Assembly: GCA_046728155.1 (NCBI GenBank)
Contig: JBKPDY010000124.1
Location: forward strand, 236 to 64,235
Reading direction: 5' to 3'
Source of the DNA: Actinomycetota bacterium
GTDB lineage: Bacteria > Actinomycetota > Actinomycetes > Mycobacteriales > Micromonosporaceae
Length of the DNA stretch: 64,000 nucleotides
The notes under the pieces were generated by a model, which made no database searches, was not told the DNA's origin, and worked only from the letters and a program-made list of their open reading frames with translations. The position numbers and the translations under genes are program-made. Of this stretch, positions 2,212 to 61,905 are shown piece after piece. Numbering within the stretch: position 1 is the stretch's first letter; every line of letters begins with the position of its first letter.

Positions 2212-3609
2212 ATGACGATCGCGGCCACGGCTCCGGCCATCCCGCCTGTGCACGAGGTACGTGTCAGGCTGCGCCGCGTCCGTCGTACCCACAGCGACCG
2301 GACGCTCGGCGAGCTGCTCACCGACGTGTACCTGGTGACCTTCCTGGTCGTGCTCTACGGCGGCAGCGGAGTCGTCAGCCTGCGGCGGCACCTGGCCAGG
2401 CCGGTGGGTGGGCCCATCGGCCTGGAGTCCACCAGGGCCTGGCTCGTCGTCGCCCTCCTGGTCACCGCCGCCATCCTCGGTTGGCGCGGGCTGCGCGCGC
2501 TCGGCCCGCTCATCACGACACCGGCAGCCCAGACGTGGTGCCTGTCCACCCCGATCGACCGGGCGGCGTGGCTGCGGCTGCCGATGTACTGGGTGCTCGG
2601 CGTCTGCGCGCTCGCCGGCGCCGCGGCCGGGGTTCTCGCCACGTGGATGGGCCTGGCCACCTCTGCGTTCTGGGGTGTGTTGACCGGAGCCGGCGTCGGC
2701 GTCGCCCTCGCCGCCGCGAGTGTTGTCGTCCAGTCCCGCCAGCTGGGCGTGACCCGCCGCGTACGACCGTCCGATGTGGCGCTTCTGGTGAGCCTCCTGC
2801 TGGTCACCGCCGCTGTGACAACCCGGGTCACCCACATCACAGCGGGCCCACCGATGGTGCCGGCCGTGGTCTTCGCGAGCATCGCGGTCGTCGCCGCCGG
2901 CGTCGCCATCCGGCTCGCCGTACGGGCACTCGGGCGGGTCAACCGCGCGACCCTCGCCGGCGGTGCCGAACTCGCGGGTGCGGCGGTGTCCGCCGTTGTG
3001 ATGCTCGACCCGTCGCTCTTCTCCGGGCTCGTCGAGGCGCGGCGGTGGCGGGTCGCCGGACGAGTCCACAGCCGACGGTGGATTGCGGGTGGACGGGAGT
3101 GGGTGCTCGTCCAAGCCGATCTGCGCCGCCAATGGCGCCGCAAGTCCGGCCTGATCGCCTGGGCCGCGCTCATCCTCGCGCCGTACACGGCCGCGGTCTT
3201 CTCGTCCTCGGCCGTCGGCTCGGTTCGCATCATCGCCGGCTACCTCGCCACCGAGCGGCTCGCGGCCGGCCTCCGGCTCGTTTCGCGGTCACCGTCGCTG
3301 CGGCGGGAACTCGGTGGCAGCAATGCCGACCTCAAGCTCATCCACTTGGCAGTCCCGGCGTTCGGGCTGATCCTGTGGTGGCTCGCTACTCTCGCCGCCG
3401 GAGCGGTCCCGACCTCGCAGGCGCAGGGGCTCATCCTCATCGTGGGTACGCTCGGGGCCGTCTACCGTACCGCCACCCGTCCGCTGATGACGTACGACAC
3501 AGGCACGGCCGATCTGCCGCTCGGGCCCGTGCCGACGACGCTGCTCCGCCGGTTGCTCCGCGGACCCGACCTGGTCGCTGTTCTCGTACTCGTCGGCCTC
3601 TTCTTCTGA
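2212..3609 (+). CDS. polytopic membrane protein, probable membrane partner of the upstream ABC ATPase
   Basis: 465 aa with many hydrophobic Ala/Leu/Val-rich segments. It starts 4 nt after the ATPase stop. High GC3 in this frame. No family motif recognised. Confidence 0.6.
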   Translation: MTIAATAPAIPPVHEVRVRLRRVRRTHSDRTLGELLTDVYLVTFLVVLYGGSGVVSLRRHLARPVGGPIGLESTRAWLVVALLVTAAILGWRGLRALGPLITTPAAQTWCLSTPIDRAAWLRLPMYWVLGVCALAGAAAGVLATWMGLATSAFWGVLTGAGVGVALAAASVVVQSRQLGVTRRVRPSDVALLVSLLLVTAAVTTRVTHITAGPPMVPAVVFASIAVVAAGVAIRLAVRALGRVNRATLAGGAELAGAAVSAVVMLDPSLFSGLVEARRWRVAGRVHSRRWIAGGREWVLVQADLRRQWRRKSGLIAWAALILAPYTAAVFSSSAVGSVRIIAGYLATERLAAGLRLVSRSPSLRRELGGSNADLKLIHLAVPAFGLILWWLATLAAGAVPTSQAQGLILIVGTLGAVYRTATRPLMTYDTGTADLPLGPVPTTLLRRLLRGPDLVAVLVLVGLFF

Positions 3610-3623
3610 ACCCCTAGGGGTTC
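3608..3623. other. 16-bp perfect palindrome GAACCCCTAGGGGTTC overlapping the stop codon of the upstream gene
   Basis: Read directly from the sequence. It lies between the membrane-protein stop and the MMPL gene. It could be a stem-loop or an operator. Confidence 0.3.
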
Positions 3624-3831
3624 GCCCACGCGCAACAGCGCTGGTCAGACCGCCGATGGTAGGGATATCCCCACCTACGGACTGCGGTCAGCCTCCTCAG
3701 GGTCAGCTCCGGGCCTTCGCCGGATGGCGGCTCCCGCCCCGGGCCATAACGTCACCTTCGACAACGCCGGCGTACGCGACTGTCCACTGTGGGCAACGTG
3801 TATCGCCGGCTCGCCGAGAGGGGACGTAGCC

Positions 3832-16079: not shown

Positions 16080-16097
16080 CCTGCATTTCTATGCAGG
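16080..16097. promoter_or_regulatory. ARG box (ArgR operator) candidate in the argC 5' region
   Basis: CCTGCAT-TTCT-ATGCAGG: 7-bp inverted arms containing the TGCAT-N4-ATGCA core of actinomycete ARG boxes. It lies 11-28 nt upstream of the argC ATG and overlaps its SD. Confidence 0.5.
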
Positions 16098-16190
16098 ATA
16101 CCGTATCAACATCCAGGCACCCGCTCCACCTGTTTCGGGGGATGGACGGCGGTCGGGTAGGGTCCGCAGGTCACCGTCTCCCCGGGAAGC

Positions 16191-16275
16191 TGATGACAAC
16201 GAGCCGGCATCGAGTGAGCATCGCGGGAGCGCCAGGCCCGCGGAGCGGAGCGAGCGCGGAGGCGAGCGGGCATGA
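16191..16275 (+). repeat. intercistronic repeat family, shortened copy C (termini only, no internal module)
   Basis: TGATGA-CAACGAGCCGGCATCGAGTGAGCATCGCGGGAGCGCCAGGCCCGCGGAGCGGAGCGAGCGCGGAGGCGAG-CGGGCATGA. It shares both termini with the copies at 32049-32237 and 60320-60490. Confidence 0.65.
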
Positions 16276-19252
16276 CGCGCGTATCGCCGTCCCTCGGGAC
16301 GAGCAGGTCCAACCCGCCACCGGCCGGCCGGCCGGCTGGCGCCGGCGGCTCCCCGACGCCATCACCGGCGCCGTTGTCCTGGCGATGATCGGTTTCGTCC
16401 TGGGCGGCATCGGCATCCAGCTCGCCGGCGTCCGTGTCCTGGCCGACACCAGCAGTCTGACCGTCTCCAGTGTCTATCGCGACGGCGGAATGCCGCAGAC
16501 GTCCTCGGGAACGCTTGGACTCAACGACACGATCGACGCCGCCACCCCGAACGAGGTGCTCTTCGGCACGGAGCTTCGCAATGGGGTCTTCGCCGACTGG
16601 AACCCGTACGCGTTGGGCGGCGCTCCGCTCGCCGCGACGCCGAACTTCGGCCTACTCTCGCCGCTGGCCGCACCCTTCTGGCTGTTGCCCGGTTGGCTGG
16701 CTCCGGCCTACGTCAAGCTGCTCGAATGCATCGTCGCCATCGGCGGCACGTACCTGTTCCTGCGGCGGTTGCGACTACGCCCGGCGGCCGCGTGTCTCGG
16801 CGGGACGATCTTCGCCTCAAGCGCCTTCATAGTGGCGTGGACCGGTTGGCCGCAGACGCGGACCGCCGTCGTGATCCCGGCCCTGTTCTGGTCATTGGAC
16901 CGGCTGGCTGAACGCCTGCGCTGGCGCGAGGCCGCGCTGGTTTCGCTCGCCGTGATGTGCCTGTTGCTCGGCGGCTTCCCGTCGGTCACCGGGTACGCCC
17001 TGCTGACCGGGGCGGCGTACCTGGCGGTACGTCTGCTCGCCCAGCGCCCACTGCGGTGGCCGGTGGTCGTGGCCCGGTCGGCCGCCGCCGCCGGTGCTGT
17101 CCTGGCCGGCATAGCGGCGACGGCCTGGCAGCTCGTCCCGTTCGCCCAGTACCTGGGCACCGCGCTGATCAGAGGGCGGGACCAGGTCTCCGGCCAGCAC
17201 ATCCCGGTCGAGGCTCTGCTGACCACGATCGCCCCGTACGCGCTGGGTACGGCGAGCGCCCGGAACGCGCCGACCTGGTTCGCGCCGGGAATCCTGGTAG
17301 AGGGCGAGTCGTACATCGGCGCGGCGGCGTTGGTGCTCGGGGTGGCGGCGGTGGCGCTCGCCGGACGGGCCCGGGCGTTACTGCCCCGTGGAGTCTGGTG
17401 GTTCCTCGTCGCCGCAACCCTCGGCTGGGGCGTGGTCATCTATCTCGGGGGGGCGCCGCTCGGGCTGCTGCAGCGGACCGGGTATCTCTTCTCGGACAAC
17501 TTCATCGGCCGGGCCCGGAGCATCCTCGGGCTGCTGGTCGCCGCGCTCGCCGCCGTCGGCTTCGAACTGCTCCTGCGCCGGCGGGAGGAGCACACCGTCA
17601 ACCCGCTGACCCGAGCCTCACGGGCGTACGGACTGGGCGTATGGCTCGCCGTCGCGAGCGGTGGCGCCGTCGTGTACCTCGTCGGGCGTCGGCTGGCCAC
17701 CGCCCGCGGAACCACGACCGTCTCGACGGCCGGGGCGGTCGGCCCCGACCAGGCCGTAAGTGATCTCACCGCGCTGAACCGACAACTGGCCATCGGTCTG
17801 CTCCTCGCCGCGCTGACCGGAGCCGCGGTTGCCTGGCTCTGGTTCGGCCGACAAGACGGGCTCGGCCGGCGCCGGCGGGCGCTCGTCACCGCCGCCGTGG
17901 TCCTCATCCCCGCCCTGGTCGCCGGCCAAGCGCTCGCGTGGGTACTGAGCTACTACCCACACTCGAAACGGGCGAACTTCTACCCCACCAACGCGGTACA
18001 CGACTACCTCGCCGCACACCTGGGGCACGAACGGTTCTACGGGACCGCCGGAGCGATCTACGGCAGCCTCGAGACCATCCACGGCCTGCGCCAGTTCCAC
18101 GGGCACGGATTCATGGAGCAGGAGTACGGCGAGCTTGCCGACGCTCTGCCCGGTCGCCAGTTCCCGCCCCCACCGAGACCGGCCACCATCATCGTCGGCG
18201 AGTCGGGCGACGCGGCCGAGGCCGTTGCACACAGCCCGATCCTGGATCGCGCCTCGGTTACCGAATACATCGCGCCGCCGGAGGTGCAGCCCTTCGGCGA
18301 CCTGCACCCCACGCCGACGGACGGGTCGAACGTGACGCTGACGCTCGGCCACCCGGTCACTGTCGAGGTGCCCACAACCGGACCGCTGCGCGGGATCGGG
18401 ATCACGCCGACCGGTTCCGTCGGGCCGACACTGCGGCAACAGATCGACGTCGCGTTGCGCGACGCCGACGGCACGCTCGTGGCCGAGGCGTCGCGAGTGG
18501 ACCGGGAGGTCGCCGCGGGTGTGCCGTTCGTGGTACCGCTCGCCGCGGACACCCTCGGCGGTTCCCTATCTACCGCCGGTCCGCAACTCACCGCGAACAC
18601 GCGACTTACCGCCACGATCACGCTGAAGGGGTTCTCGCTCGTCGGGGCTCCGCCGGCCCCGCCACCACGGCCATGGACGATCGCCGCCCGCCAGGGGACG
18701 CCGGCCATCACCGTGGTGACGCCGAGGCCGAACGACGGCCTGCGGCTGGCGTTCGACGGCCAATCGGTGATCTACCACCGCACGACCGCCCTTCCCCGGG
18801 CCCGGTGGGCGTCGTCCACTGTGGTCGTACCCGACGCACCCGCGCGGCTGAAGGTGCTCGCGTCCGGGAGGCTCACGCCGGACCAGGTCGTGCTGAACTC
18901 CCCGGGCGCACCGGCCGAGGGCCAACCCGCCACAGTGGACTGGATGGACGACGACCTGGACGAGTTGTCATTGCGCGTCGATGCCCACGGCGCCGGGTAC
19001 GTCGTCGTCGCGGACGCCATCCAGCACGGCTGGAAGGCCACAGTGGACGGTCACCCGGCCGCCATCGTGCCGGCCGATCACGCCTTCGCCGCCGTATCGG
19101 TACCGGCCGGCCGGCACACGGTCCGGTTCGTCTACGCCCCGGCCCGCGAATCGCTAGGGGTGGCCATCACCCTGGTCACTGTGCTGGGCCTGCTACTGGC
19201 GGCCGGCATCGAGTGGCGGCGGGAGCGTGCGCGGCGCAGCCGCCGCGGCTGA
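16193..19252 (+). CDS. YfhO-like GT-C family membrane glycosyltransferase (large polytopic protein with an extracytoplasmic C-terminal domain)
   Basis: From ORF 16091..19252. Many TM helices in the first ~600 aa. WNPYALGGAPLAATPNFGLLSP motif after TM1. C-terminal HTVRFVYAPARESLGVAITLVTVLGLLL anchor resembles YfhO-family ends. The start is uncertain: the 16091 ATG lies inside the ARG box, and the 16193 ATG is the left-junction ATG of repeat copy C. Confidence 0.6.
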   Translation: MTTSRHRVSIAGAPGPRSGASAEASGHDARIAVPRDEQVQPATGRPAGWRRRLPDAITGAVVLAMIGFVLGGIGIQLAGVRVLADTSSLTVSSVYRDGGMPQTSSGTLGLNDTIDAATPNEVLFGTELRNGVFADWNPYALGGAPLAATPNFGLLSPLAAPFWLLPGWLAPAYVKLLECIVAIGGTYLFLRRLRLRPAAACLGGTIFASSAFIVAWTGWPQTRTAVVIPALFWSLDRLAERLRWREAALVSLAVMCLLLGGFPSVTGYALLTGAAYLAVRLLAQRPLRWPVVVARSAAAAGAVLAGIAATAWQLVPFAQYLGTALIRGRDQVSGQHIPVEALLTTIAPYALGTASARNAPTWFAPGILVEGESYIGAAALVLGVAAVALAGRARALLPRGVWWFLVAATLGWGVVIYLGGAPLGLLQRTGYLFSDNFIGRARSILGLLVAALAAVGFELLLRRREEHTVNPLTRASRAYGLGVWLAVASGGAVVYLVGRRLATARGTTTVSTAGAVGPDQAVSDLTALNRQLAIGLLLAALTGAAVAWLWFGRQDGLGRRRRALVTAAVVLIPALVAGQALAWVLSYYPHSKRANFYPTNAVHDYLAAHLGHERFYGTAGAIYGSLETIHGLRQFHGHGFMEQEYGELADALPGRQFPPPPRPATIIVGESGDAAEAVAHSPILDRASVTEYIAPPEVQPFGDLHPTPTDGSNVTLTLGHPVTVEVPTTGPLRGIGITPTGSVGPTLRQQIDVALRDADGTLVAEASRVDREVAAGVPFVVPLAADTLGGSLSTAGPQLTANTRLTATITLKGFSLVGAPPAPPPRPWTIAARQGTPAITVVTPRPNDGLRLAFDGQSVIYHRTTALPRARWASSTVVVPDAPARLKVLASGRLTPDQVVLNSPGAPAEGQPATVDWMDDDLDELSLRVDAHGAGYVVVADAIQHGWKATVDGHPAAIVPADHAFAAVSVPAGRHTVRFVYAPARESLGVAITLVTVLGLLLAAGIEWRRERARRSRRG

Positions 19253-31092: not shown

Positions 31093-32055
31093 TCACTCGA
31101 CCGTGACGACGTGGTCGTCGGGAGCGGCCACGGTGCCGTCGTCGGCCAGGTAGTAGGCCTCGATGCGGTACCGGCCGGGGGTGAGGGTTAGCGTCACGGT
31201 CGCCGTTCCGACGTGCGGCGCGCCCTTGTCGAGCCTGACCGGCTGCGGGGTCACCACCGACCCATGCTCGTCCCAGACGATGAGCATGGCGACGGCCCCC
31301 GGAACTGATCCGACGATCTGCACCGGAACCGAGCGGCCGACGGTATCTCCTTGTTCGGGCCAGCTCAGCCAGACCGGCGCCTGAATATCCACGGCCTGCG
31401 CCCGTGCGGTCGGGTCCTTCACGTCGAGACCCCAGAGTTTCGTCCCGCCGTTCACCTCGACCCGTACGTTGACCAGTTCGGTATGTTTCTCCTGCGCGGC
31501 TACGGCCGTCGCGGTGTAAATGAGCTGCTGCAGCGCGATCTCCGCGTCCGCGGGAGCGGTGCCCGGCACGCCGACCAGGTCGACCCTGATCGTGGCGCCG
31601 GCCGTCTGTACCGACTGGACGGTCGCCGCGGCGGGCCAGGCGGTGTGGTAGTCGGGGTCGAGCGGGCGTCCGGCGATCATGTCGGTAAGGGCCGCCTTGA
31701 TCTGGTCATCGAGGCTCCCTCCGCCTGGATACGAGCGGTACTCGCGATAGAGCAGATCGCGACCCGACACTGTTCCGACAACATAGACCGGCAGCCGTGG
31801 ACCGGCCGGAACCGGCGTGGGTCCTATGCCAGGGGGCGGCGGCGCCGACCAGGGCAGCGTCAAGACAACCGCGGTGATCCCGGCGGCCGCGCTCGTGGCC
31901 AGGCCGGCCACCGTGATCGTCCAGAGACGACGGCGACGGGTGGCCGACCCGAGCCGGCGCCGGATCGTGGCCAGTGCGTCCGGGGCGGTCTCCACCCTCG
32001 CGGCCCGGTCTTCGAAGGCCTGCCGCAGCTCGTCCACAAACCTGTCGGTCATCCC
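31093..32055 (-). CDS. single-pass membrane protein with GerMN and Ig-like (Gmad2-type) extracytoplasmic domains; probable partner of the upstream ECF sigma factor
   Basis: From ORF 31093..32142. The ATG at 32055 gives MTDRFVDELRQAFEDRA, then one TM (WTITVAGLATSAAAGITAVVL), then the periplasmic domains. Its SD/ATG is supplied by the right junction of repeat copy A. Confidence 0.7.
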   Translation of the reverse strand, partial: GMTDRFVDELRQAFEDRAARVETAPDALATIRRRLGSATRRRRLWTITVAGLATSAAAGITAVVLTLPWSAPPPPGIGPTPVPAGPRLPVYVVGTVSGRDLLYREYRSYPGGGSLDDQIKAALTDMIAGRPLDPDYHTAWPAAATVQSVQTAGATIRVDLVGVPGTAPADAEIALQQLIYTATAVAAQEKHTELVNVRVEVNGGTKLWGLDVKDPTARAQAVDIQAPVWLSWPEQGDTVGRSVPVQIVGSVPGAVAMLIVWDEHGSVVTPQPVRLDKGAPHVGTATVTLTLTPGRYRIEAYYLADDGTVAAPDDHVVTVE

Positions 32056-32237
32056 TCCTCGCCTCCGCGCTCGCTCCGCTGCTGCCACCCCACGAAGACT
32101 CTCCGCTGCGCTCCACGTCTCCGCGGGGACCCCGGCCCCCACCCCACGAAGACGCTCCGCTTCGCTCCACGTCTCCGCGGGGACCCCGGGAAGGGCCTAC
32201 CGGCCCTGCGATGCTCACTCGCTGTCGGCTCGGTCAT
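32049..32237 (-). repeat. intercistronic repeat family, copy A (two 54-bp modules), containing a 62-codon ORF coupled to both neighbours
   Basis: The ORF's ATG overlaps the sigma TGA, and its TGA overlaps the ATG of the next gene. Termini are shared with the copies at 60320-60490 and 16191-16275. Flanked by the direct repeat GAGGGATGA (22 bp including adjacent identity). Confidence 0.8.
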
Positions 32238-32891: not shown

Positions 32892-34608
<1,717 letters not shown>

Positions 34609-59334: not shown

Positions 59335-59892
59335 TCAGGCACGCCCGAGGTAGCGGCCGTCCCGAGTGTCGACCTTGATCCTCTCACCGGTCGTGACGAA
59401 GAGCGGCACCATGACCGTGGCGCCTGTCTCGACCGTCGCAGGCTTGTTGCCGCCGGTGGAGCGGTCGCCCTGCAGACCCGGCTCGGTGTAGGTGATCTGT
59501 AGCACGACGCTGGCCGGCAGCTCGACGTAGAGAGGCACGCCATTGTGCACGGCGACCGTCACCTCGGCCTCGGGCAGTAGGTAGTTCGTCGCGCCACCGA
59601 CCGTCGAAGCTGGCACCGGTATCTGCTCGTACGACGACAGGTCCATGAAGATGAAGTCGTCGCCGTCGGCATACAGGTACTGCATCGTGCGCTTGTCGAC
59701 CGTCGCCGTGTCGACCTTCGTACCGGCGTTGAAGGTACGGTCGACAACCTTGCCGGACAGGACGTTCTTCAGCGTCGTACGGACGAAGGCGCCGCCCTTG
59801 CCCGGCTTGACGTGCTGGAACTCTACGACGGACCACAGGTCGCCATCGAGATTGAGCACCAGGCCGGGCTTGAGGTCGTTGGTGGTGGCCAT
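59335..59892 (-). CDS. efp: elongation factor P
   Basis: From ORF 59335..59961. The internal ATG gives [13 protein letters not shown]...[13 protein letters not shown]. Confidence 0.94.
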
Positions 59893-59996
59893 GGGCGCGG
59901 GACGTCGCCTTTCGGATCGGGGTTGAGGACGGCAAAACGCCAGAAAGTCTACCCGTGGCATTGACGACGTGGCTCGGCGGTCCGATAGTTAACCAC

Positions 59997-60323
59997 ATGG
60001 TTAATAGTCAGGCTCACCCGCTGGACCGGACGTTCGCGGCTCTAGCCGACCCCACCCGGCGCGACGTCGTCGCCTCGCTCGCCACCGGCCGCCGTACGGT
60101 CGGTGAACTCGCCGCCCCGCAGCCGATGTCGCTGGTCGCCGTCACCAAGCATCTGACCGTGCTCGAGCGGGCCGGCCTCGTCGAACGGGTCCGGCACGGC
60201 CGTACGGTCGTCTGCAGCCTGCGCGGTCGTCCCCTGGCCGAGGCCTCACGGTGGCTCGATCGCTACTACGCCTTCTGGACCGACCGCCTGGACGCTCTCG
60301 AGTCATACCTGGGTCAGCCGTGA
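59997..60323 (+). CDS. ArsR/SmtB-family transcriptional regulator
   Basis: From ORF 59955..60323. FAALADPTRRDVVASL and the HTH VGELAAPQPMSLVAVTKHLTVLERAGLV. Start uncertain (59955 or 59997). Confidence 0.85.
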   Translation: MVNSQAHPLDRTFAALADPTRRDVVASLATGRRTVGELAAPQPMSLVAVTKHLTVLERAGLVERVRHGRTVVCSLRGRPLAEASRWLDRYYAFWTDRLDALESYLGQP

Positions 60324-60490
60324 CCGCCGAGCCGACAGCGAGTGAGCATCGCAGGGCCGTCAGGCCCGAGCCGGGGCCCCCGCGGAGACGTGGAGCGCAG
60401 CGGAGCAGCTTCGGCGAGCTTGCGAGCCGACCAACGAAGCATTGCGCGGGGTGGCAGCAGCGGAGCGAGCGCGGAGGCGAGCAGTCGTGA
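60320..60490 (+). repeat. intercistronic repeat family, copy B (one divergent internal module), containing a 56-codon ORF coupled to both neighbours
   Basis: The ORF's GTG overlaps the ArsR TGA (GTGA), and its TGA overlaps the ATG of the SRPBCC gene (TGATG). Left and right termini are the same as in copy A. Confidence 0.8.
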
Positions 60491-60936
60491 TGCACCTACG
60501 ACTCGAGCGGACGCTGGCCGCGCCGCCCGTGCGGGTGTGGCACGCGCTGACTGACGCCGACGAATTGACCCGCTGGTTCTGGCCGGCATCGTACGGGACC
60601 CTGGTGGAGGTGGATCTTCGTCCCGGTGGCTCATTGCGGATCGACGCGCCCGGACTGATGGGGGTTCAGGGCGAGTACGTGGACATCGACCCACCCCGGC
60701 TGCTCGCCTTCACGTGGCAGTGGAACGGCGAAGCGGAGCGGACGGCCGTACGGGTAGAACTGTCCCCCGTGGACGGTGGGACCCGCCTCGTCCTTGTGCA
60801 CGAAGGATTCGCCGACCCGGCGACCCGCGAGAGCCACACGACCGGGTGGTCGGACTGCCTTGACCGGTTGCCCGCTCACCTCGCCGGCGACGACCGGGAC
60901 CGTGCACTCTTCGATGCACGTGCACGCGACGGCTGA
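60490..60936 (+). CDS. SRPBCC (AHSA1/START-like) domain protein
   Basis: From ORF 60442..60936. MHLRLERTLAAPPVRVWHALTDADELTRWF is typical of Aha1-like SRPBCC proteins that pair with ArsR regulators. Confidence 0.75.
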   Translation: MHLRLERTLAAPPVRVWHALTDADELTRWFWPASYGTLVEVDLRPGGSLRIDAPGLMGVQGEYVDIDPPRLLAFTWQWNGEAERTAVRVELSPVDGGTRLVLVHEGFADPATRESHTTGWSDCLDRLPAHLAGDDRDRALFDARARDG

Positions 60937-61002
60937 CCAGCTGGGCAGAGTTGACCTCCCGCGGGATGCCTGTCCGGGTGCGGCTCGGCTAGCCTGATCA
61001 TC

Positions 61003-61905
61003 GTGGCATCCGACGGGACCGAGGCCGCCGCGCGGCAGGCGCAGGCCGGCTCGTACCTGAGGCTGTTGCTCGTCCGGCCGGGCGAGCTGCGCGCGGCCTG
61101 GGAGAAACACGCCGAGCACGCGCAGCCCGGCGAGACCGATGCCGTCGCGATCGCCGCCGTTCTCAACGCCGGATCCGCCTGGCCGCCGGTACCGGTGGCC
61201 GAGGTGCGCTCGGCTATCGACGGCGGTGCTCTGACGCCGCAGATGTTGGAGCGGTTCATCGAGGCGTTCGACCTCGGACCACGCCACGCCGACCAGCTGC
61301 GCGGGCTGTTGCGAGGCAGCGACTCCGTCCGGGTCATCAGCGGCTCGGCGCTCTCGGACCTGCGCCCGATCGGACCATCGCGGTACGAGACGCTCGCCAT
61401 CCACGAGTTGCACACTCTCGGCGCCGACGGGCTTCCGGCCGAGCACCAGACCATCCAGGTCATCAAGTCCACTGTGGACTCGCTCGACACCTACCCGTAC
61501 CGGTTCGACACCGACCAGCTCGTGGTGGAAGTGGTCCGGGGCGGCCGCGTCGGAGATGTCTACCGCGTCAATGAAGGGCTGTTCGGGGTCGACATCGTGC
61601 TCGACCGGCCGCTCGCGCAGGGCGAGACGGCTCTGATGCATTACCGGCTCACCTTCGCCTACCGCACACCACCGCCGGCCGAGTTCCGCCGCGGGGTCAT
61701 CGGCACCATGCACGACGTGACCCTCTGGGTCCAGTTCCACCCCGACAAGGTGCCGGCCCGGGTGTGGCAGGCGCGATGGGACCGGCTGGACGACGCGACC
61801 ATCCTCGAGCAACAGCTGGTCGAACTGGACGGCGAGTTCTCGGCGCAGGCCCGCTACGACCACGTGGAAGATTCAATCATCGGCTTCCACTGGGCGTGGG
61901 ACTGA
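61003..61905 (+). CDS. hypothetical protein (300 aa), no recognised family
   Basis: GTG start. Strong GC3 bias in this frame compared with the overlapping antisense ORF. No motif recognised. Confidence 0.6.
   Translation: MASDGTEAAARQAQAGSYLRLLLVRPGELRAAWEKHAEHAQPGETDAVAIAAVLNAGSAWPPVPVAEVRSAIDGGALTPQMLERFIEAFDLGPRHADQLRGLLRGSDSVRVISGSALSDLRPIGPSRYETLAIHELHTLGADGLPAEHQTIQVIKSTVDSLDTYPYRFDTDQLVVEVVRGGRVGDVYRVNEGLFGVDIVLDRPLAQGETALMHYRLTFAYRTPPPAEFRRGVIGTMHDVTLWVQFHPDKVPARVWQARWDRLDDATILEQQLVELDGEFSAQARYDHVEDSIIGFHWAWD

Follow-up and report, generated by a model that had tools for sequence, protein, structure and literature searches.

A probable MIRU-like repeat between an ArsR gene and an SRPBCC gene of a Micromonosporaceae genome

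In a 64,000-nucleotide stretch of DNA from a metagenome-assembled genome (MAG) of the Micromonosporaceae (GenBank assembly GCA_046728155.1, contig JBKPDY010000124.1, positions 236 to 64,235 of the forward strand; 69.5% G+C; hereafter the window), a gene for an ArsR-family regulator and a gene for an AHSA1/SRPBCC-family protein are separated by a composite element of about 166-167 nt (60324-60489). This element, copy B, is one of three related copies (A, B and C) in the window, and it is spanned from end to end by an open reading frame (ORF) of 56 codons that begins on the stop codon of the first gene and ends on the start codon of the second. What kind of sequence occupies such a junction, and how could a pair of genes accommodate it? 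We conclude that copy B is probably a partly decayed, composite member of a dispersed and tandemly amplifiable repeat family that resembles the interspersed repetitive units of mycobacteria (MIRUs) and that may be described as a portable mini-cistron. The parts of the locus are as follows.

59997-60323, + strand: ArsR-family regulator gene, 108 aa from ATG 59997, with its TGA at 60321-60323; ends CAGCCGTGA (60315-60323)
60320-60323, + strand: left junction GTGA, a 4-nt overlap of the mini-ORF start (GTG) with the ArsR stop (TGA)
60320-60490, + strand: mini-ORF of 56 codons spanning the whole element, from translation
60329-60353, + strand: conserved 5′ box GAGCCGACAGCGAGTGAGCATCGCA, identical in copy A and with 2 mismatches in copy C
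60354-60367, + strand: small hairpin GGGCC-GTCA-GGCCC directly 3′ of the 5′ box, seen in the predicted fold
60371-60413, + strand: remnant of a 54-nt hairpin module, with the 5′ arm CCCCGCGGAGACG and the loop kept and the 3′ arm lost (nhmmer match to module positions 2-44)
60414-60444, + strand: 31-nt mosaic piece, absent from copy A in the alignment with it, holding GCGAGCTTGCGAGC and then CGAC
60445-60481, + strand: 3′ part, made of the hairpin-module end CGCGGGGTGGCAGCA and the purine-rich 3′ box GCGGAGCGAGCGCGGAGGCGAG, identical in all three window copies
60482-60492, + strand: right junction CAGTCGTGATG, at which the mini-ORF TGA overlaps GTG 60487 and ATG 60490 of SRPBCC (GTGATG at 60487-60492)
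60490-60936, + strand: AHSA1/SRPBCC-family gene, 148 aa (Pfam AHSA1 1.5e-28), from homologues and synteny

Copy B opens CCGCCGAGCCGACAGCGAGTGAGCATCGCAGGGCC and closes ...GGTGGCAGCAGCGGAGCGAGCGCGGAGGCGAG, followed by CAGTCGTGATGCAC (60482-60495), and the mini-ORF that crosses it encodes the peptide VTAEPTASEHRRAVRPEPGPPRRRGAQR...GWQQRSERGGEQS. The stop codon of the mini-ORF (60488-60490) forms GTGA with the GTG at 60487 and has one base in common with the ATG at 60490, and a Shine-Dalgarno-like GGAGG stands shortly before it at 60473-60477. The preliminary description of the locus had given the ends, the frame, the peptides and the types of flanking gene, all of which hold on re-reading; it had also called the central module only partly shared with copy A, and copy B does keep the 5′ arm and loop of that module, with the 3′ arm replaced by the mosaic piece. 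The 14-mer GCGAGCTTGCGAGC exactly matches the center of a different unit subtype and occurs in the units of L008, L035 and L048, and the mosaic piece may be a fragment of such a unit. The replaced arm, together with a whole-element fold that is no better than that of shuffled sequences (z = +0.8), indicates that copy B is an older or rearranged member of its family. It is no assembly artefact, as two other assemblies of the locus, an NCBI MAG (L066) and a JGI metagenome (L067), are identical across it.

The other two copies in the window differ in composition and in setting.

32049-32237, - strand: copy A, composite, flanked by a sigma-70-family gene (stop 32236-32234) on one side and a Germane-domain gene (ATG 32052) on the other
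16184-16274, + strand: copy C, a short basic unit of 5′ box, hairpin and 3′ box (nhmmer E = 1.6e-12)

Copy A is bounded by ATGA on either side and contains two 54-nt hairpin modules in tandem (32189-32084); its fold is better than that of shuffles (z = -2.85), and the peptide of its 62-codon mini-ORF, MTEPTASEHRRAGRPFPGSPRRRGAKR...GWQQRSERGGEEG, is co-linear with the copy B frame. Copy C is without the 54-nt module and lies in a region divergent from argC, in the sense orientation of a 1053-aa membrane-protein ORF (16091-19252, +) and just upstream of or within its start. That copy B is the second copy of an intercistronic repeat, as first described, is confirmed by end pieces of 28 and 30 nt, each of which occurs exactly twice in the window where none is expected (0 in 100 shuffles). 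As a separate observation, copy C is in frame with the 1053-aa ORF, and the ATG that follows its 3′ box (16272) begins no more than an out-of-frame ORF of about 40 codons; the element's own ATG (16184) or a GTG may be the start of the membrane protein, which would make copy C an N-terminal extension, or else the true start may differ.

Outside the window the same sequence recurs as a family. Its basic unit is about 77 nt long (76-79 nt) and runs from RTGA (ATGA or GTGA) through the 5′ box and a short hairpin to the purine-rich 3′ box GAGGAGCGGAGCGAGCGCGGAGGCGAG, which is followed by a few bases and then by the next start codon; the optional 54-nt module, present 0-2 times per element, forms a hairpin stem of 13 bp. 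A scan with the 22-nt 5′ box, taking one genome per species, gave at least 65 loci. Among the matches listed, on which the following counts of hosts, arrays and junctions are based, the hosts are Micromonosporaceae, Geodermatophilaceae, Pseudonocardia and Jatrophihabitans, with 'Mycobacteriales' MAGs as well; they include the cultured genera Phytohabitans (Phytohabitans kaempferiae), Blastococcus, Geodermatophilus (Geodermatophilus sabuli) and Modestobacter, and also the complete genome of Blastococcus brunescens. Tandem arrays of 2-5 units occur among these matches, the longest being that of L043, with five units of 76 nt separating nuoD from nuoE, and that of L034 (a MAG, 2593-2929), with five units of 78 nt that follow the motif ..YMRQM within an ABC-F ATPase gene and are in frame with it. 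The ABC-F orthologues of two Geodermatophilaceae, L023 (915-966) and L029 (4808-4924), have one or two units, and such internal units are apparently translated as a protein segment. In a scan of metagenomes the dapA-rnj junction holds one composite unit in L076, L077 and L082 and the same unit plus a 77-nt basic unit in L081, so that copy number is polymorphic between populations. The regular spacing of 76-78 nt in L034 and L043 also brought to mind an array of clustered regularly interspaced short palindromic repeats (CRISPR), an idea that was rejected on the grounds that the whole period is repeated and that there are no unique spacers.

The family has empty sites as well as filled ones. The closest relative with a long contig (L068), whose SRPBCC protein is 67% identical to that of the window, is without the element, and its ArsR and SRPBCC genes overlap by ATGA in the same synteny as in the window (pyrR, bldD, ArsR, SRPBCC, a 282-aa gene and an aldehyde dehydrogenase). 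An overlapping junction of this kind had been expected for a relative lacking the element, and its presence in conserved synteny supports insertion into a stop/start overlap; the pre-insertion sequence of the window can be reconstructed as ...CAGCCGTGATGCAC. At the junction that corresponds to copy A, the sigma-factor and Germane genes overlap by 8 nt in L073 and by GTGA (4 nt) in L071. A different state of that junction is seen in L069 (1470-1510) and, with the same sequence, in L070, where a 20-bp tandem duplication, GGAGCGGTCATGAGCA-TGTT-GGAGCGGTCATGAGCA, creates a 7-codon mini-ORF (MSMLERS) that has ATGA at both ends and contains no repeat element. This duplication could be a slippage product or a footprint and, taken with the variants in L073 and L071, it suggests that such stop/start junctions are prone to duplication. 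In L071 (1420-1500), moreover, the end of the sigma-factor gene consists of about five tandem repeats of 15-18 nt (GAATCGCYGTCYYGG, peptide ..ESLSRESPSWESPSWE..) that precede the GTGA overlap.

The placement of the element relative to its neighbors is far from random. The strand of the surrounding coding sequence was called from G+C at the three codon positions as GC3 + (GC1 - GC2), because third-position G+C alone is shared by the antisense frame and mis-assigns strands. With this caller the element is co-oriented with the upstream coding sequence at 61 of 66 loci and with the downstream coding sequence at 52 of 56 (p ~1e-11 to 1e-13), a bias better explained by targeting or selection than by chance, as had been surmised from the two junctions in the window. 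Copies A and B lie 28 kb apart on opposite strands, each sense to its own genes, and orientation therefore follows transcription and not replication. Nearly half of the arrays (34/71) start at the stop codon of a co-oriented gene, and the RTGA logic at both ends that was first noted for copy B is repeated in copy A and, in other genomes, at no fewer than 14 more loci. About 22 mini-ORFs start on RTGA. Some 16 of these also close with RTGA at the start codon of a long, coding-like ORF, where chance alone would put roughly one third in the correct frame, and 2 continue in frame into the gene downstream. In 22 of 26 resolvable cases the GGAGG of the 3′ box precedes the start of a long ORF by 6-10 nt, the usual Shine-Dalgarno spacing. 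The '3n+2' length of single-ORF insertions is a consequence of how cases were chosen and is not used as evidence here.

These regularities suggest how the ArsR and SRPBCC genes might tolerate copy B. The two genes look like one operon, in that the single promoter-like site within 59850-61050 lies just 5′ of ArsR (59961-59989), with no terminator-like site in that interval and no internal promoter-like site between the two genes. We propose that a ribosome ending ArsR at its TGA would restart at the overlapping GTG, translate the 56-codon frame across the element while melting its hairpin, and terminate at the TGA that overlaps the SRPBCC start; restart on SRPBCC would then be helped by the element's GGAGG, 9-12 nt upstream. 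A relay of translation of this kind would leave expression of the operon largely intact after insertion, and the peptide made along the way would itself be without function. Local multiplication would proceed by slippage, giving tandem arrays of variable number. For spread to new sites our preferred guess is copy-choice or microhomology recombination, in which the terminal Shine-Dalgarno...RTGA of the element would pair with the equivalent sequence of a target gene, the alternative being a trans-acting, strand-specific enzyme that would recognize the conserved boxes and the hairpin.

The closest parallel to this arrangement is found in mycobacteria. Two papers that summarize Supply et al. (1997 and 2000) deal with MIRUs: PMC12548453, on the authority of the 1997 study, describes elements that insert at start codons and whose internal ORF is coupled at -4 nt, and PMC2734929 gives a length of 40-100 bp, 41 loci in H37Rv and a proposed role in differential translation within operons. 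The senX3-regX3 spacer of Mycobacterium tuberculosis (L084) is made of units of 77, 77 and 78 nt, each starting ATGACC, with ATGA overlaps at the senX3 stop and between the units and with GGAGGAGGAG preceding regX3. The family described here likewise consists of dispersed units in the 40-100 bp range, its basic unit of ~77 nt having the length of the senX3-regX3 MIRU (copy B itself is composite), and these lie between the genes of operons or at gene starts in the same orientation as the genes. Both kinds of element have an ORF that overlaps the stop of the gene upstream with its start codon and the start of the gene downstream with its stop codon (ATGA, or GTGA in copy B), a GGAGG-type site near the 3′ end of the unit, tandem arrays of variable copy number and hosts within the same broad actinobacterial radiation. 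They differ in that the hosts of the present family are non-mycobacterial (Micromonosporaceae, Geodermatophilaceae, Pseudonocardia and others; the nearest named protein relative of the window comes from a Micromonosporaceae MAG), in that the family is modular, with the 54-nt hairpin module inserted 0-2 times, and in that some of its subfamilies are without a start codon or GGAGG. At the level of sequence, global and local alignments of the senX3-regX3 units with the family gave z ~0 against 1000 dinucleotide shuffles, and the Mycobacterium avium repeats MIRU292 and VNTR25 (from PMC7977185) did not rise above shuffles by local alignment or profile search. With the same logic and unit length and no similarity beyond shuffled controls, the element is MIRU-like in its logic and is not a member by sequence. 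A 15-nt match between the mosaic piece of copy B and VNTR25 (ACGAAGCATTnCGCG) was considered and set aside as not significant. As an observation on the mycobacterial side, RegX3 of M. tuberculosis (P0034-P0043) is annotated in different records at 227, 229, 245, 248, 256, 277, 318, 344 and 347 aa, and at least one of these forms, that of 256 aa (L084), has its start within the last MIRU, which is 78 nt long there and in frame with regX3.

A broader conjecture, which we advance tentatively and hold to be doubtful as it stands, is that the family and the mycobacterial MIRUs are branches of one ancient class of mini-cistrons that home to start codons. Their boxes and sense-strand hairpin would be read by strand-specific machinery acting in trans, or would serve as a copy-choice substrate, such that units are pasted precisely at gene starts with a length of 3n+2 between genes and 3n inside them, which would allow translation to be relayed. 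Units might occasionally be exapted as protein segments and ribosome-binding sites, and the class would belong to a Mycobacteriales-level radiation of the Actinomycetota.

Several observations weigh against reading copy B as a member of a mobile, translation-coupled repeat family. The loci examined revealed no mobility event, no trans-acting gene and no fixed target duplication. The loci themselves were picked through the 5′ box from the matches listed, many are on MAG contigs, and some are orthologous or related and hence not independent. The large hairpin is lost in copy B, which weakens any structure-dependent function there. Copy C and some Geodermatophilaceae and Pseudonocardia copies misfit through a position in a 5′ leader, the lack of a start codon after the TGA or the lack of GGAGG. 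A subfamily in Pseudonocardia MAGs (L015, L039, L042, L047, L051, L059, L061, L064 and L065) departs from the scheme of two-sided coupling altogether: it starts right at the TGA of a gene (cTGAGCCGCCAGC) without a start codon, its 3′ box is without GGAGG (GAGCGTCGGCGGCGAAGCATCGGCAC), and its arrays end in a partial 5′ box. Finally, the boxes are nearly invariant across bacterial families, and an orthologous copy between nuoA and nuoB is identical at 70 of 73 positions in two genera where the flanks are ~88% identical, which is more than a passive selfish repeat would need and speaks for selection on the sequence itself. This suggests that the boxes are constrained by a host function, by recognition for spread or by gene conversion among copies.

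The first of these constraints leads to the strongest of the alternatives, that the element is not selfish at all and is instead a cis-acting RNA module selected by the host, in which a translation enhancer or standby site is combined with a hairpin that stabilizes or processes mRNA and the mini-ORF is secondary. The 3′ box is nearly invariant in 35 distinct units across families although it is outside the search pattern, the position of the element is fixed relative to start codons, and orthologous copies such as that at nuoA-nuoB are kept across genera and are more conserved than their flanks. Both hairpins, too, keep their pairing by compensatory changes. The short hairpin varies in sequence with pairing preserved (8 same-length copies are 100% paired, with 2 of the 5 pairs compensatory), and the 54-nt module is 97.8% paired in 7 intact copies with 2 compensatory pairs; its G-U pairs mean that the large hairpin forms on the sense strand only. 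Against a dedicated regulatory role stand the genes downstream, which are functionally unrelated (nuoB, nuoE, argG, rnj, rarA, SRPBCC and Germane), the relatives that have the same junctions without the element, the broken hairpin of copy B, the units that lie in frame inside a protein gene, and a copy number that differs between populations and reaches 5 units in an array. Rfam 15 gave no match for the element, neither at the gathering score in the window nor, at E <= 10, any meaningful match for copies A and B. We regard a host-selected RNA module as an unlikely account of the family as a whole, and prefer to see the element as a MIRU-like repeat.

The sequences that flank the copies bear on how such a repeat might have moved. 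The preliminary description drew attention to a 9-bp direct repeat around copy B; the repeat is there, with 8 of 9 positions identical, and it is not diagnostic of a target duplication. As evidence it is weak, because the stop/start logic demands GTGA at both ends and, in the right-hand copy, CAG matches the family's own 3′ consensus GGAGGCGAGCAG..RTGA. The associated idea of a target-site duplication of fixed length fails more generally, the 9-mer duplication being no general property of the copies: exact flanking direct repeats range from 0 to 28 nt and extend to either side of a start codon that they always include. They measure 22 nt in copy A, which is flanked by a 22-bp direct repeat, 15 nt in L054, 11 nt in L038 and 5 nt in copy B. 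The right-hand repeat is often a chimera of the 3′ end of the element and the target, the terminal ATGA.. repeat is subfamily-specific within one genome and so part of the unit, and two orthologous copies (L002 and L024) are flanked by ATGGG and not by RTGA. With ends that are not inverted repeats, as judged by eye, and with flanking repeats that vary over this range, the copies do not have the characters of miniature inverted-repeat transposable elements mobilized by a DDE transposase. Copy-choice or microhomology recombination between translation-initiation regions, or a single-strand mechanism with a specific target, would fit better than DDE duplication.

A mechanism of the latter type is the basis of the second alternative, namely that the element is REP-like (REP, repetitive extragenic palindrome) or a non-autonomous derivative of IS200/IS605 that depends on a Y1 (HUH) transposase encoded elsewhere, moves in single-stranded form and inserts beside RTGA without target duplication. 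An RTGA target on the coding strand would by itself fix orientation relative to genes, and the strict orientation bias, the RTGA at both ends, the lack of a fixed-length duplication and the conserved hairpin between conserved boxes with its strand-specific G-T/G-U pairs would all be in keeping with this reading. No transposase is seen near any copy, however, and the family lacks both inverted unit pairs like those of bacterial interspersed mosaic elements (BIMEs) and subterminal hairpins at both ends. The ATGGG flanks of L002 and L024 do not agree with an RTGA target, recombination is a better fit to the long chimeric flanking repeats of 14-28 nt, and viral contigs and plasmids are without the element. 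Its 5′ box does not occur in any of 2.9 million viral contigs, and a blastn search of 72,556 plasmids gave no match to copy A, which leaves a phage- or plasmid-borne origin without support. We therefore rate mobilization by a Y1 transposase as improbable, with copy-choice recombination of a MIRU-like unit still the preferred guess.

It is highly improbable that the 56-codon frame is a genuine small-protein gene conserved for its product. The frame is open, begins on the stop codon of the gene upstream and is co-linear with that of copy A, which would agree with such a gene. The peptide is nevertheless of low complexity, its middle differs between copies A and B, and mini-ORF peptides have no match in Pfam or NCBIfam. 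The length of the mini-ORF varies from 24 to 73 codons across loci, and about 11 of the 56 codons end in A or T as against 85-95% third-position G+C in the genes of this genome. Other subfamilies read the same DNA in another frame, the 5′ box appearing as ..EPTASEHR.. in units that start ATGACC and as ..SRQRVSIA.. in those that start ATGAGCACnGC, and this shift of frame together with the lack of family matches indicates that the nucleotide sequence is conserved and not the peptide. A chance similarity of low-complexity, G+C-rich sequence or an assembly artefact of the metagenome bin, to which a purine- and GC-rich sequence in a window from a MAG might lend some color, is hardly credible in view of exact repeats of 28-30 nt where 0 are expected, identical independent assemblies, and a family that is present in cultured isolates, for instance P. 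kaempferiae, B. brunescens (complete genome) and G. sabuli.

Short repeats of other bacteria provide further points of comparison. The BOX elements of Streptococcus pneumoniae have the structure boxA - boxB(n) - boxC and thus, like the present family, a conserved 5′ module, a variable number of central modules of ~50 nt and a conserved 3′ module; both have predicted stable hairpins and a transcribed intergenic location. BOX elements differ in that they are not known to have ORFs that overlap start and stop codons, a ribosome-binding site for the next gene or a tie to start codons, and their sequence and host phylum are unrelated. REPs and BIMEs, which occur in enterobacteria and pseudomonads with REP-associated tyrosine transposases (RAYTs), are likewise short hairpin repeats in transcribed intergenic regions with no classical target duplication, and REP hairpins can protect upstream mRNA. 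In contrast to the family, they are usually inverted pairs downstream of genes and are not known to have ORF or Shine-Dalgarno logic; the units of the family are always direct, never inverted pairs, and sense to genes, and no RAYT was identified at the loci examined. With the Rickettsia palindromic elements (RPEs) the family shares members that can sit in frame inside protein genes (the ABC-F array of L034, and L023 and L029), but RPEs are palindromic, about 100-150 bp long and mainly intragenic, whereas the family is found mainly at gene boundaries.

By the literature, Rfam and the protein-family libraries searched, the family is apparently not yet described. Strings of the element had no match in the literature searched apart from an unrelated one in a paper on mouse bone biology, and no relevant MIRU-like element of Actinobacteria was found there; a match to an Amycolatopsis paper proved to be merely the species name 'mirum'. 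MIRUs have been used in tuberculosis genotyping since the late 1990s. To our knowledge, their origin, their movement and their effect on expression have never been settled, in part because M. tuberculosis has only about 40 loci with little diversity. The present family occurs abundantly among soil actinomycetes that can be cultured (Blastococcus, Geodermatophilus, Modestobacter, Phytohabitans and Pseudonocardia) and in many metagenomes, and supplies for these questions sites both filled and empty, polymorphic copy numbers, subfamilies whose ends differ and in-frame intragenic copies. Elements of this kind also have practical consequences: they lengthen or split gene calls, as in RegX3 (227 to 347 aa) and in the membrane protein of the window that reads through copy C, and they break short-read assemblies.

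Some matches to the family call for separate comment. The dapA-rnj array in L079 (~3200-3640) has a different left flank that joins inside a unit, and the contig looks like an assembly chimera caused by the repeat. Matches were also obtained in MAGs labelled Ectothiorhodospiraceae, Acidobacteriaceae, Methylomirabilota and Planctomycetota (L001, L009, L013 and L058). Two of these, L001 and L009, have the 22-mer alone with no remaining unit and are probably chance or partial matches; L013 and L058 have full elements, that of L013 being very like copy A, and are probably mis-binned actinobacterial contigs.

As to the genes that flank copy B, the ArsR protein has the Pfam domains HTH_20 (8e-10) and HTH_5 (1e-7), and JGI gene calls also place its start at ATG 59997; the SRPBCC start is annotated at ATG 60490 (protein P0001, an identical 148 aa). 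The promoter-like site before ArsR, TTGACG-17-GATAGT, stops 8 nt short of the ArsR ATG (59997), and this spacing suggests a transcript that is leaderless or has a very short leader. A perfect 7-bp inverted repeat, TTAACCA-CA-TGGTTAA (59989-60004), spans the ArsR start codon and is a plausible candidate for an ArsR operator in autoregulation. Elsewhere in the window, a lumazine synthase-like ORF is located at 32892-33383, and the sole Rfam match at the gathering score is an FMN riboswitch (RF00050, 36384-36543, - strand, 92.4 bits) that presumably controls a riboflavin gene cluster.

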